Positions 55,052 through 61,736 of a stretch of 64,000 bases of DNA are shown here, one piece after another. The notes beneath the pieces were generated by a model that saw only the letters and a program-made list of their open reading frames with translations, did not search any database and was not told the origin of the DNA. The position numbers and the translations under genes are program-made. Source of the DNA: Alphaproteobacteria bacterium (GTDB lineage: Bacteria; Pseudomonadota; Alphaproteobacteria; RF32; CAG-239); the NCBI GenBank assembly GCA_017480745.1, contig JAFUSA010000008.1, positions 10,530-74,529 of the forward strand, in the 5' to 3' direction. How positions within the stretch are numbered: the first letter of the stretch is position 1; the number at the start of each line of letters is the position of its first letter.

Positions 55052-56488
55052 ATGGTGGCAAATATGAAACAGGGAAAAAATAAAGGGTACATTGCCGCAA
55101 TTAACGGTGGAGTAATCGAAGTTACTTTTGCCGGTAATTTGCCGGAAATGTATAGCGAACTAAAAATCGGCGAGTTAGTGGCCGAAGTGCAAGGTTATAT
55201 TGACGAACATAATGTGCGTGCGTTGGTAATGGGACCAACACAAGGATTAGCACGCCACATGGAAGTTATTGACAGCGGACACCCGATTGAAGTTCCGGTT
55301 GGTTCGGAAGTGTTGGGACGGATGTTTAACTTATTCGGTCAGCCTATTGATAAAAGCGGCACATTACAAGCCAAACATAAAAGATCCATTCACGCTGTGC
55401 CATTGCCGCTTAATGAACGGCAAAATGAAACCGAGATTTTTGTATCAGGAATTAAAGCCATTGATTTGCTGGCACCAATGGAACGAGGCGGAAAAGCCGG
55501 ATTGTTCGGGGGCGCCGGTGTTGGCAAAACGGTTTTAATTACCGAACTGATTAATAATATGGTTGGTCGCTATGACGGTGCCAGTATTTTTTGCGGAGTT
55601 GGCGAACGTTCGCGTGAAGGAGAACAGCTTTATCGTGAAATGAAAGATGCCGGCGTTTTGGATAAAACCGTAATGGTATTCGGACAAATGAATGAAGCGC
55701 CGGGAGTGCGCTTTCGGGTACCTTTAACCGGTTTAACCATGGCCGAGTATTTTCGCGACAAAGAAAAGAAAGATGTTTTGCTTTTAATTGATAATATTTT
55801 CCGCTTTATTCAAGCAGGTTCGGAAGTTTCTGTATTGTTGGGGCAAATTCCGTCACGTGTCGGCTATCAACCATCGCTCGGCACGGATATTGCCGATTTG
55901 GAAGAGCGTATTGCCTCCACTCGCGATGCGGCAATTACCTCTATTCAGGCCGTTTATGTTCCGGCCGATGATTTTACGGATCCATCAGCAGTACATACGT
56001 TTGCACACCTTTCTTCAAGCATTGTGCTTTCACGCGCAAGAGCGGCACAAGGTTTATATCCGGCTGTTGATCCGCTGACGTCATCATCAAATATGTTAAC
56101 ACCGCAAATTGTCGGCGAAAGACATTATCGGGTGGCTGTGGCAGTGCGTAAATGTTTGGCGCAATACGAAGATTTGAAAGATATTATTGCCATGTTGGGC
56201 TTTGATGAACTTCCGGAACGAGACCAAAATATAGTAATGACCGCTCGCAAATTAGAACGCTTTTTAACGCAACCGTTTTATACTACCTATCAGTTTACCG
56301 GTATGGAGGGACGTTCGGTTGATTTGCAAAAAACAATAGAAGGATGTGAACGCATACTATCCGGCGAATTTAATTATCTCTCTGAAAATGATTTCTTTAT
56401 GGTGGGAGATATTGATGAAGTGTTGGAAAAAACCAAAGATAAAAGAGCAGCTTATGAAAAAACATTAGCGGAGGAAGCTGCGCAATGA
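55052..56488 (+). CDS. atpD: N-ATPase beta subunit
   Basis: Walker [16 protein letters not shown]-like region. First gene of the operon; overlaps atpC by ATGA. Confidence 0.9.
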
Positions 56489-56889
56489 AGTTGATCGTGT
56501 TTACCCCGATAGGCACAGTTTTGCAGTGCAAAATAAAAAAAATAACTTTGGAAACGCCAAGCGGTTATTATACTTTGTTGCCTCATCATGTTGATTTTGT
56601 ATCGGCAATGGATGAAAATATTATCAGCTACACTACCGAAAGTGATGAAAAAAAATATATTGCATGTCAACGTGGAATTGTGGTAAAAAAAGCCGAAAAC
56701 GTTACTATAACGGTTCAGCATGCCGTTTTGGGAAATACTCTTGACGAATTGGAAAAAGTTATTGAAATAGATTTCAAACAAGCAAACGAACAGCGCAAAG
56801 AATTAAACACGGCTATGGCTCGTTTAGAAATAGGTCTCATTCGCGGTTTTAATCGCCTAAATCAAAATATCGGAGGGGTAGATGGTTGA
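56485..56889 (+). CDS. atpC: N-ATPase epsilon subunit
   Basis: 134 aa beta-sandwich + helical hairpin; translationally coupled on both sides. Confidence 0.75.
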
Positions 56890-57217
56890 TTTTGATGATT
56901 TACACAGCCGTGATGTGCAAAAAAAACTGCTACATAAAACGGAATTATTGAAAAATCGTCCGGAAAACCGTTTTAATACAGACTTCGGAATGATAGCTTC
57001 TTTGGGTGGAGTTATTATTGTTCCCATTCTTATCGGAGTGTTTTCAGGCAGTTATTTAGAAGAAAAATTTCCTCAACATTTTTCTTGGCGTCTGTCTTTA
57101 ATATTTTTGGGTTTTGTTTGGGGAATAATAAACGCTTATTTGTGGATTAAGAATGAAAACAGAAAAATAATACAAAACAATTCGGAAGATACACAAAAGA
57201 GGGATAAACATGAATAA
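56882..57217 (+). CDS. N-ATPase accessory membrane protein AtpQ (Atp1/gene 1 family)
   Basis: 111 aa with 2 TM helices; sits at the position of 'gene 1' in N-ATPase operons. Confidence 0.55.
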   Translation: MVDFDDLHSRDVQKKLLHKTELLKNRPENRFNTDFGMIASLGGVIIVPILIGVFSGSYLEEKFPQHFSWRLSLIFLGFVWGIINAYLWIKNENRKIIQNNSEDTQKRDKHE

Positions 57218-59351: not shown

Positions 59352-60868
59352 TGGATACGGAAAAAACATTTGCTGCCATAGATAGAAGCATAAAAAAAAC
59401 AAATGCTAAATTAAAAAAAGAAGAAGTTAGTGTTGTGCGCTCAATTTCCGCCGGCGCTGCTATTGTCAGCGGTTTGGAAAAGGTAGAAATGGAGGAACTG
59501 TTAGAATTTCCGAACGGTGTTTTCGGAATGGTGCAAACACTTAACAGAGATTCTGTCGGTGTAGTTTTTTTGGATAGTTCCCGTTCCATAAAGGCAGGTG
59601 ATAGAGTGCAACGAACCGGCCGCGTTTTAGATGTTCCGGTATCGGAAAATCTGCTCGGGCGCGTTATCAATCCACTTGGAACTGCGTTAGACGGTAAAGC
59701 TCCAATTGCTTTCAGCGAGCGACGCAAAGTAGAGGTAGAAGCCGTGCCGATTATGGACAGAGCACCGGTAGATACACCGTTGCAAACCGGCATTAAGGCC
59801 GTTGATTCGTTTACGCCTATCGGACGCGGGCAACGTGAGCTTATTTTAGGAGATCGTCAAACCGGTAAAACGGCTATTGCACTCGATACTATGATTAACC
59901 AAAAAAACAGCGGCGTTATAAATATTTATTGTGCCATCGGGCAGCGCAATTCCGCTGTTTCCGGAGTTATTGCCGATTTGGAAAAATATGATGTTTTGCA
60001 AAATACAATAGTTGTTGTCGCTTCGGCTAATGACGAGGCCGGAATGCAATATGTTGCCCCATATGCGGCCACCTCAATCGGCGAATATTTTATGGAAAAA
60101 GGACGTGATGTGCTGATAGTTTATGATGATTTAACCAATCATGCCAGAGCCTACCGACAAATGTCGTTGTTGTTGCGTCGACCACCGGGACGCGAGGCTT
60201 TTCCGGGAGATATTTTTTACATTCACTCACGTCTGTTGGAGCGTTCAACACATTTGCGAGAGGAACTTGGCGGCGGTTCACTTACTTCTTTGCCGATTGT
60301 AGCAACCGAAGCCGGTAACATTTCCGCCTATATTCCTACTAACATTATTTCCATTACCGACGGGCAAATTTATTTATCGGCTCCAATGTTTCAAAAAGGT
60401 ATTATGCCGGCGATAGACACGGGAAAATCCGTTTCACGCGTAGGTGGAGATGCTCAATTACCGGCTTATAAATCGCTAATCGGACCGCTTAAATTGTTTT
60501 ATGCTCAATTTGAAGAGTTAGAATCATTTACAAAGTTCGGCACTCAACTGGATAAGGAAACACAAAAACGCATTGCCCGAGGACAAGCCATTCGCTTTGT
60601 TTTGGAACAAAGGCAATACCATCCTTTGCCGGCGGCAGATCAAATTGCCGTATTTATGAGCGCCAACGCCGGTTTATTTGACGGTTTGAACAATGAGAAG
60701 AACAATAAAGCGCAACAAATCGTTTTGGATGTTTTTCATACTCAGTTTGCCGATTTGCAGGCAGAAATAAATGCCCGAAAAAAACTGACCGAAGAGGAAA
60801 TAGCAGAATTAATTAACGCCATCAAACAAGGTTTAATACGAGAGGAATTATATTCTGATGCCGATTGA
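59351..60868 (+). CDS. atpA: N-ATPase alpha subunit
   Basis: Walker A GDRQTGKT. Confidence 0.9.
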   Translation: MDTEKTFAAIDRSIKKTNAKLKKEEVSVVRSISAGAAIVSGLEKVEMEELLEFPNGVFGMVQTLNRDSVGVVFLDSSRSIKAGDRVQRTGRVLDVPVSENLLGRVINPLGTALDGKAPIAFSERRKVEVEAVPIMDRAPVDTPLQTGIKAVDSFTPIGRGQRELILGDRQTGKTAIALDTMINQKNSGVINIYCAIGQRNSAVSGVIADLEKYDVLQNTIVVVASANDEAGMQYVAPYAATSIGEYFMEKGRDVLIVYDDLTNHARAYRQMSLLLRRPPGREAFPGDIFYIHSRLLERSTHLREELGGGSLTSLPIVATEAGNISAYIPTNIISITDGQIYLSAPMFQKGIMPAIDTGKSVSRVGGDAQLPAYKSLIGPLKLFYAQFEELESFTKFGTQLDKETQKRIARGQAIRFVLEQRQYHPLPAADQIAVFMSANAGLFDGLNNEKNNKAQQIVLDVFHTQFADLQAEINARKKLTEEEIAELINAIKQGLIREELYSDAD

Positions 60869-61736
60869 AGCCTTAAAAAGACGAATTAAAACAACCGAAG
60901 ATTTGCGCGAAATTGTCAATAATATGAAAATGCTTTCGTCGGTGAGTATTGGTCAATATGAACAAGCAAACGCCGTTTTAGATAAATATCGCCGCAACAT
61001 TCGCGATGCCTTTCATGCATTGATAATTAATCACGGAATTCCAAACATTAATAAACAGGCAATTATCAAAAATAAATATCTGTATGTTTTAATCGGCTCG
61101 GATAACGGAATGATCGGACGCTTTAATAAGGAAATTATTGAGGCCGTAAACAAGGATATGAAGCAACGTCATATTGCCAAACAAGATATTATTTTTATGA
61201 TTTTAGGCAAGCGTTTGGCAATGATGTCTGAGCAAACCGGTTGGAATTTATGGACATGTTACGGTATGGTTAACTCAGTAAAAGCCGTTGCCGGTTTGGC
61301 TGGAAGCGTAATTTTAAAAATAGATGAAGCAACCCGCAAAGAGCATGTTACAAATGTTTCCGTTTGGTTTCATCAGCGCAAAAACAACTCAACCGTTAAT
61401 TTGGAAAAACGCGATATTATTCCGTTTGCCGTAGAGCGTTTGCATAAGCTCAAAGCGCAAAAATGGGAAACGAATAATATTCCGATGTTACCGGTGGAAC
61501 CGCAAAAAATGTTTGCTGCTTTGGTCAAAGAAATGTTGATGAGTGCACTTTCAAAATTGATTAATTCTTCTTTGGCGGCGGAGCATTATACGCGTATGAC
61601 CAATATGCAAAATGCGGAAAAAAATATTGATGAAAACTTGGCTATTATGAATTTGGAATATCAACAACAGCGCCAAGAGGAGATAACCGACGAATTAATC
61701 GACGTTATCTCCGGCGCCGAAGCTATGAAAAAATAA
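60858..61736 (+). CDS. atpG: N-ATPase gamma subunit
   Basis: 292 aa; N- and C-terminal coiled-coil helices; overlaps atpA. Confidence 0.75.

Follow-up and report, generated by a model that had tools for sequence, protein, structure and literature searches.

The locus at positions 55052-61736 of a 64,000-nucleotide stretch of DNA from an Alphaproteobacteria bacterium (contig JAFUSA010000008.1 of assembly GCA_017480745.1, the whole stretch being referred to here as the window) raises the question of which type of rotary ATPase its nine genes encode, which ion that enzyme would move, and whether it might be the only such enzyme of its host. An earlier note, made from the sequence alone, had taken the locus for a complete N-ATPase operon, and the gene order, the presence of AtpQ and AtpR, the fused b-delta subunit, the clade in which its proteins fall and the ion ligands of the c subunit all support that interpretation, as do the NCBIfam 'alternate F1F0' models, which rank top for seven of the nine proteins (beta, AtpQ, AtpR, a, b, alpha and gamma). 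We put at about 0.88 the probability that the locus is an entire, working rotary ATPase operon of the N-type (N-ATPase), on the chromosome of an uncultured animal-gut alphaproteobacterium. The operon belongs to an already known family, and it is the family member that is new rather than the family itself.

The nine open reading frames (ORFs) are packed in the same direction on the + strand and encode, in order, beta, epsilon, AtpQ, AtpR, a, c, b, alpha and gamma. Each lies at exactly the position that the earlier note gave for it, and the ORFs together with the Pfam matches confirm both the gene order that it described and the lack of a delta gene, with no separate delta (atpH/OSCP) ORF found within the operon in either the ORF list or the Pfam results. 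This is the atpD-C-Q-R-B-E-F-A-G arrangement that defines an N-ATPase operon, carried on a single strand with overlaps or gaps of no more than 17 nt at any junction, and all nine ORFs are intact, with zero frameshifts and zero internal stops. Among the eight junctions, six are overlaps (4, 8, 8, 17, 1 and 11 nt) and two are gaps (1 and 16 nt), and Shine-Dalgarno sequences resembling GGAGG or GAGG lie 5' of most of the genes. The tight coupling proposed for the operon is therefore well founded in its overlaps, short gaps and ribosome-binding sites, but the several 'ATGA overlaps' that had been described come down to one, the 4-nt overlap at the beta/epsilon junction. The true start of beta may be M5 (55064), which would shorten the annotated 478-residue protein, because most relatives have a beta of 472-474 residues.

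All nine proteins have Pfam matches above the gathering score, with beta and alpha falling in ATP-synt_ab (E = 1.6e-72 for beta), epsilon in ATP-synt_DE_N, AtpQ in ATPase_gene1, AtpR in the family of that name, and the a, c and gamma subunits in ATP-synt_A, ATP-synt_C and ATP-synt, respectively. The two small proteins that had been proposed between epsilon and a both pass: AtpQ scores 36.6 bits against a cutoff of 26.6 with PF09527 and 52.2 against 46.7 with TIGR02230, and AtpR reaches 40 bits against a gathering score of 26 with PF12966. The 258-residue b subunit matches ATP-synt_B over residues 7-136 and has TIGR03321 as its best NCBIfam model, and the delta-like C-terminus attributed to it is borne out by a Pfam OSCP match over residues 170-245, which covers profile positions 97-172 of 172 and scores 30.4 bits against a gathering score of 22.3.

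NCBIfam provides curated 'exception' models for the alternate F1F0 enzymes (TIGR03305, TIGR03324, TIGR03323, TIGR03306, TIGR03322, TIGR03321 and TIGR03166), and the comparison of these with the canonical models points to the N-type. Beta scores 727 bits with TIGR03305 (alt_F1F0) against 631 bits with the canonical TIGR01039 (atpD), and alpha 721 bits with TIGR03324 against 627 bits with the canonical TIGR00962 (atpA), so that the alternate models win by ∼95 bits for both subunits. Gamma behaves similarly (201.6 bits with TIGR03323, 113.7 bits with the canonical gamma model), and the best model for the a subunit is TIGR03306 (altF1_A) at 211.5 bits. For epsilon and c the alternate model ranks second, behind PRK-derived F0F1 models that are themselves below cutoff. 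Epsilon reaches 114 bits with TIGR03166, passing its cutoff of 100.1, and 119.5 bits with NF004871, under the cutoff of 135, and the c subunit scores 98 bits with TIGR03322 and 106 bits with NF009998.

The residues expected of a working enzyme are kept. Beta has GGAGVGKT at residue 153 and GERSREG at residue 184, alpha has GDRQTGKT at residue 167, and the a subunit retains the essential stator arginine, R184, within LRLFGN. A canonical F-type operon (atpIBEFHAGDC) was considered and rejected, as here beta and epsilon come first, a delta gene is lacking and AtpQ and AtpR are inserted.

The earlier note had proposed a phylogeny of alpha and beta, and this we carried out on a comparison set obtained by scanning GTDB species representatives with the beta of the window and extracting the genes of 80 loci. 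Neighbor-joining trees (100 bootstraps) were built from 80 beta and 64 alpha sequences, with an F-type outgroup of 16-18 sequences, mostly from Firmicutes. The split between N-type and F-type sequences is supported at 100/100 in both trees and the window falls on the N-type side in each; a clustering with canonical F-type sequences was not seen in either. Within the N-types, the window and loci L003-L006 form a clade at 100/100. Identities of beta fall into three tiers, at 74-83% to four Alphaproteobacteria metagenome-assembled genomes (MAGs), at 56-68% to loci from Nitrospirota, cyanobacteria, Desulfobacterota, Planctomycetota, Gammaproteobacteria and others, and at ≤56% to canonical F-type loci of Firmicutes and other phyla. 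Two of the four MAGs in the first tier carry source titles that name roe-deer jejunum and goat abomasum. When the trees are rooted with the F-type sequences, the gut clade comes out as sister to all other sampled N-types, a basal position that is tentative because the trees are neighbor-joining rather than maximum likelihood, the outgroup is small and the low-GC sequences form long branches.

Gene order follows the same division. Where more than the beta gene is present, almost all N-type loci (L003-L064) read beta-epsilon-Q-(R)-a-c-b-alpha-gamma, and the F-type loci (L065 onward) have the canonical order with alpha, gamma and beta last. The order is permuted to a-c-b-alpha-gamma-beta in two N-type loci, L038 from a Desulfamplus MAG and L054 from a Nostoc MAG, with epsilon and Q coming next in L054; Dibrova et al. 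noted a similar exception in Persephonella. Public metagenomes contain at least 120 clusters (formed at 90% identity) that are 77-95% identical to the beta of the window, and among the beta matches listed, every cluster with a named source is a 'MAG: Alphaproteobacteria bacterium'. Against the Protein Data Bank (PDB), canonical F1 betas score 440-552 bits with the beta of the window, with that of the alphaproteobacterium Paracoccus no closer at 489, and this comparison returned no solved N-type F1 structure.

AtpR, a protein of about three membrane segments, is the hallmark of the family. A pair of AtpR membrane segments with conserved arginines, proposed to pair with two glutamates of the c subunit, was described by Dibrova et al. 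(PMC2881411), and both of these family-typical membrane arginines are present in the window, R60 in transmembrane segment 2 (TM2) and R90 in TM3, as assigned by eye from hydrophobic runs. Across ∼59 AtpR sequences, the TM2 column (R60) holds arginine in every aligned N-type sequence, and the TM3 column (R90) is mostly arginine with lysine in several sequences and glutamine in one. A hidden Markov model (HMM) that we built from AtpR candidates recovered a homologue in all sampled N-type loci, in each case between atpQ and atpB; elsewhere it gave a single match of 19 bits, in the F-type locus L076. BLASTP with the AtpR of the window against the comparison loci found a homologue only in L003. Use of the longest ORF between atpQ and atpB as a stand-in for AtpR was rejected, owing to spurious ORFs in GC-rich loci.

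We turn now to the coupling ion. The c subunit was aligned to the Na+-specific one of Ilyobacter tartaricus (query 100% identical to PDB 1YCE) and to that of Fusobacterium nucleatum (3ZK1), and the residues picked out in the earlier note, ALGEG in helix 1 and IETSSLY in helix 2, align as E30 and as E63, T64, S65 and Y68. This is the complete Na+ ligand set, comprising a helix-1 Gln or Glu and, in helix 2, a Glu, a Ser or Thr at both +1 and +2, and a Tyr at +5. A glutamate lies mid-helix in each of the two helices (E30 and E63), which corresponds to the two-carboxylate form of the site. The full set is found in 35 of 53 sampled N-type c subunits, the remainder having Ile, Leu, Val or Ala at +2. 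The Na+ logic was set out together with the definition of the N-ATPase family (PMC2881411), and PMC5376962 cites both a Na+-dependent N-type enzyme of Aphanothece halophytica (Soontharapirakkul 2011) and the F. nucleatum ring, in which a two-carboxylate site binds Na+. Because the c subunit holds the full ligand set, we somewhat favor Na+ over H+ as the coupling ion, and the operon would then probably be a Na+-exporting pump.

All nine genes, atpQ and atpR included, are under strong purifying selection, with ratios of nonsynonymous to synonymous substitution rates (dN/dS) of 0.03-0.12 against the closest relative, L083, a metagenome contig from the Joint Genome Institute with a beta 95% identical to that of the window; synonymous sites in this comparison are near saturation (dS of about 1.1-2.0). 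A decaying operon or pseudogene was rejected, given the lack of frameshifts and stops, the dN/dS values and the intact catalytic motifs. Among members of the gut clade, identity is down to 25-50% for the small subunits and to as low as 74% for beta, and from the divergence of the small subunits it follows that the operon has long been resident in the lineage; it is old there and not a recent arrival. The composition of the operon is close to that of its surroundings, with a GC content of 0.399 compared with 0.378 for the rest of the window, and a GC content at third codon positions (GC3) of 0.360 compared with 0.339 in ten other long ORFs.

The features of the locus are collected in Table 1. 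The NUDIX gene that directly precedes the operon occupies this place in L083-L086 too and has a dN/dS of 0.055 against L083, and no homologue of it was found in the stretch of L003 that was examined. It may be the first gene of a transcript shared with the ATPase operon, because the best-matching + strand promoter-like site is located 5' of it; in the interval that separates the NUDIX stop (55000) from the beta start (55052), neither a promoter-like nor a terminator-like site was found on the + strand. On the other strand, at 54229-54501, is a lysine-rich ORF of 90 residues, whose N-terminus resembles a signal peptide and which matches no Pfam family, and L083 has an ORF of equal length, strand and position beside its NUDIX gene (7211-7483). 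Beyond the NUDIX gene and this ORF the flanks differ even in L083, and when the ORFs of the window were searched for synteny against L003-L082, hardly anything beyond the operon proved to be shared, which makes synteny unusable for recognizing an empty site or insertion point.

Table 1. The N-ATPase locus and its upstream elements, in window coordinates
Feature	Position	Strand	Basis or remarks
Promoter-like site TTGAAT-16-TATAAT, extended -10 TG	54517..54544	+	best + strand match, 10/12
NUDIX hydrolase (MutT-like)	54593..55000	+	Pfam NUDIX E=2e-20 and NUDIX_4; 51 nt upstream of beta
atpD, N-type beta, 478 aa	55052..56488	+	TIGR03305, P-loop, N-type clade
atpC, epsilon, 134 aa	56485..56889	+	TIGR03166 passed, Pfam ATP-synt_DE_N
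atpQ ('gene 1'), small membrane protein, 111 aa	56882..57217	+	PF09527, TIGR02230
atpR, N-ATPase hallmark membrane protein, 113 aa	57210..57551	+	PF12966, R60/R90
atpB, a subunit, 250 aa	57535..58287	+	TIGR03306, R184 in LRLFGN
atpE, c subunit, 89 aa	58289..58558	+	predicted ion site E30 / E63-T64-S65 / Y68
atpF, long b with delta-like C-terminus, 258 aa	58575..59351	+	ATP-synt_B and OSCP, TIGR03321
atpA, N-type alpha, 505 aa	59351..60868	+	TIGR03324, GDRQTGKT, N-type clade
atpG, gamma, 292 aa	60858..61736	+	TIGR03323

Two paralogous genes for pilins of the bundlin/PilS type (type IVb), at 53547-54182 (+) and 61982-62698 (-), bracket the 8.6-kb NUDIX-ATPase segment in inverted orientation. Their 5' coding parts form an inverted repeat of 192 nt (53565-53756 and 62408-62599, 83% complementary), and upstream of each is a 41-nt repeat (53293-53333 and 62894-62934) that contains a TTGACT...TATAGT promoter-like pair. 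The whole NUDIX-ATPase segment could be inverted by recombination between the pilin repeats, and the upstream pilin gene of L083 has the opposite orientation. Pilin genes of the PilS/Bundlin family number at least four within 22 kb, including those at 40520-41230 (+) and 46351-47118 (+), and the two that flank the operon have common N-termini and different C-termini; the pilins look like a multigene family that may serve surface variation. Just downstream of gamma, at 61765-61917 (+), an ORF of 50 residues resembles the last ∼40 residues of an ABC permease (BPD_transp_1, E = 0.003, below cutoff) and may be the remnant of a disrupted permease gene.

Further afield, the window carries at 2885-3224 (+) a two-piece (permuted) transfer-messenger RNA with the tag peptide ANDNFAPVAVAA, and since this is of the alphaproteobacterial type, it places the host in the Alphaproteobacteria. 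The lipid A proteins LpxI, LpxB and an LpxA-like acyltransferase are also encoded, along with ComEC, RsmB, the Cu/Zn superoxide dismutase SodC and holA, as is a bifunctional AdhE-type aldehyde/alcohol dehydrogenase of 867 residues (41293-43896, -), which points to a fermentative lifestyle. Judged by its gene content, the region is chromosome of a Gram-negative fermenter and not a plasmid or island. Alphaproteobacterial MAGs from the ruminant gut are described as members of the order RF32 with reduced genomes of ∼1.6 Mb (PMC8199421), and related alphaproteobacteria of the human gut are described as anaerobes with pyruvate:ferredoxin oxidoreductase and [FeFe]-hydrogenase (PMC4967309).

Several observations weigh against reading the locus as an N-type operon for a Na+ pump. 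Six of the seven exception models score 3-30% under their cutoffs (beta 727/752, alpha 721/750.5, gamma 202/282, a 211.5/302, c 98/131 and b 186/225), only that for epsilon (TIGR03166) passes, and AtpR is below the cutoff of NCBIfam TIGR03165 (26 compared with 55.5 bits). Helix 2 of the c subunit has Thr-Ser at +1 and +2 rather than the canonical Ser-Thr, and the N-type enzyme of Burkholderia pseudomallei, predicted from its sequence to use Na+, was measured to use H+ (PMC5376962). The direction of the enzyme, pump or synthase, comes solely from the literature on the family, by which ATP-driven ion export is the most likely. Promoter evidence at the locus is weak, promoter-like sites being no commoner in the region than in shuffles. 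For the six models below cutoff, the alternate model is nonetheless the top one in five cases and second for c, so that these scores, as judged from the profile comparisons, are a matter of threshold that marks divergence and not another family; because they sit just below the alt_F1F0 cutoffs, we regard the gut clade as a divergent branch of the N-ATPase family.

Given an N-ATPase, the closest contender to Na+ export is an H+-coupled enzyme like that of B. pseudomallei, in which ATP-driven H+ export would serve pH homeostasis or the proton-motive force in an acidic fermentative gut. The ring of that enzyme (E30/E61-T62-M63/Y66, c17, H+ selective) is the sole N-type c-ring to have been tested biochemically for ion binding, and it proved selective for H+ despite the Na+ prediction (PMC5376962); the 2025 ProAD survey of GTDB r202 predicts about half of all N-types to use H+ (893 of 1,807, with 914 predicted to use Na+; PMC11738941), and in two-carboxylate sites the helix-1 glutamate remains protonated. 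However, the B. pseudomallei ring is without the second hydroxyl, whereas the window has both T64 and S65 in addition to Y68 and E30. Its pattern is instead that of the Na+-binding F. nucleatum ring and recurs in the Halothece MAG locus L062, from the group of the Na+-dependent A. halophytica enzyme, so that H+ coupling is possible but the less favored of the two. Far less probable is that the operon is a recently acquired mobile island. The N-ATPase family is indeed patchy, laterally transferred and sometimes carried on plasmids (PMC2881411), the flanking genes differ from those of the 95% relative beyond ∼1.5 kb upstream, and the segment is bracketed by the inverted repeats of the pilin genes with the possible permease remnant directly downstream. 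Set against this, the GC and GC3 of the operon match the host, the nearest relative outside the clade is merely ∼60-68% identical, the linkage to the NUDIX gene is kept in several species, and the clade is monophyletic, its divergence matching that of the host genomes, with another ORF shared between the window and L003 84% identical where beta is 83%. No integrase, transposase or tRNA was found among the annotated neighbors at the operon borders, and an origin from a plasmid or recent island was rejected on composition and chromosomal context. The description of the operon as laterally mobile in the earlier note thus applies to the N-ATPase family, but mobility is not visible in this member, with its host-like GC, housekeeping neighbors and place in a deep gut-alphaproteobacterial clade.

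A different possibility concerns the standing of the enzyme in its host, namely that the N-type is the only rotary ATPase of a reduced, fermentative lineage, where it would keep up the membrane potential and possibly synthesize ATP. No other rotary ATPase gene lies within the 64-kb window. The operon has been retained throughout a deep clade and is under strong purifying selection, the host looks fermentative by its AdhE, and in RF32 genomes of ∼1.6 Mb (PMC8199421) two ATPase operons would be a luxury. The Prokaryotic Genome Annotation Pipeline (PGAP) labels these proteins plainly as 'F0F1 ATP synthase', so a sole N-type could escape notice, and a precedent exists in the Chloroflexota genus T78, which ProAD reports as the only case with an N-type as its sole rotary ATPase (PMC11738941). 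This has to be held against the rule that N-ATPases in complete genomes are invariably second copies, which forms part of the definition of the family (PMC2881411). ProAD singled out T78 and left the alphaproteobacteria unmentioned, a mild argument from silence (PMC11738941), and its supplement holds no per-taxon data for RF32 or Alphaproteobacteria; in the literature on RF32 or gut alphaproteobacteria and ATP synthase we found nothing on a second rotary ATPase. We consider a sole N-type unlikely on this balance, though well ahead of recent acquisition, and the fuller proposal, in which this only rotary ATPase has come down by vertical descent from the base of the clade and represents the earliest-branching N-ATPase lineage, is if anything slightly less likely still.

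For the preferred reading, that of an ATP-driven Na+ pump, a mechanism can be sketched in steps taken from the F-type and N-type literature, onto a locus in which we have documented the completeness of the subunits, the N-type clade, the intact motifs and purifying selection. The alpha3-beta3 head would hydrolyze ATP and thereby turn gamma-epsilon together with the c-ring. An ion carried on E63 of each c hairpin, and coordinated by E30, the hydroxyls of T64 and S65, and Y68, would pass R184 of the a subunit, be exchanged and be released outside. The single long b/delta fusion would form the stator stalk, replacing separate b and delta subunits, and AtpQ and AtpR would act as membrane accessory factors, in assembly or regulation, with the two arginines of AtpR probably pairing with the two c carboxylates during ring assembly. 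In the Na+-rich fluid of the gut, such an exporter would give a fermenter both a membrane potential and a sodium-motive force.

The N-ATPase family was defined in 2010, and catalogues of GTDB genomes list ∼1,800 members; the operon type is therefore not new. What the locus documents is a deep, conserved N-ATPase clade in uncultured alphaproteobacteria of the animal gut, a niche unlike the usual marine, halotolerant and soil hosts. Members of this clade are named plain 'F0F1 ATP synthase' because they score below the alt_F1F0 cutoffs yet above the generic atpD and atpA cutoffs, and this annotation blind spot covers the whole gut clade (relatives P0018, P0036 and others). Metabolic reconstructions of its MAGs would hence wrongly assign a conventional ATP synthase. 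Were the host to have no other rotary ATPase, the clade would offer a clean natural test of the replacement of an F-type by an N-type enzyme, the rule that the N-type is always the second would be broken in a whole host-associated order, and an N-type would be able to act as the primary membrane energizer, as a Na+ pump or even as a synthase.

Compared with known systems, the operon shares with the N-ATPase family, first described in Methanosarcina barkeri and known also from marine cyanobacteria, Burkholderia and others (Dibrova, Galperin & Mulkidjanian 2010, PMC2881411), the atpDCQRBEFAG order, the two-arginine AtpR, AtpQ, the lack of a delta gene, the long b subunit and the two-glutamate c subunit. 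It differs from the family in its host, a low-GC animal-gut alphaproteobacterium rather than a marine, halotolerant or soil organism, in the position of its clade outside all other sampled N-types in the neighbor-joining trees, and in having Glu-Thr-Ser in place of Glu-Ser-Thr. With the N1No-ATPase of B. pseudomallei (EMBO Rep 2017, PMC5376962) it has in common the operon architecture, E30 and the helix-2 glutamate, the threonine at +1 and the tyrosine at +5, but that enzyme has methionine at +2 (E61-T62-M63) where the window has serine. The A. halophytica enzyme is likewise an N-type with a helix-1 glutamate, hydroxyls at +1 and +2, and tyrosine at +5 (a pattern read from Halothece L062), although its host is a halotolerant cyanobacterium that also holds a canonical H+ F-ATP synthase, and its beta is ∼59% identical to that of the window. 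The F. nucleatum c-ring (3ZK1, GEG ... ESTGIY) matches in the helix-1 glutamate and in the helix-2 pattern E-[S/T]-[S/T]-x-x-Y, but it belongs to a canonical F-type operon with delta, and the order of its hydroxyls is Ser-Thr where that of the window is Thr-Ser. Finally, the Chloroflexota T78 enzyme resembles the one described here in being an N-type in an anaerobic lineage, but it comes from another phylum and is predicted to use H+.

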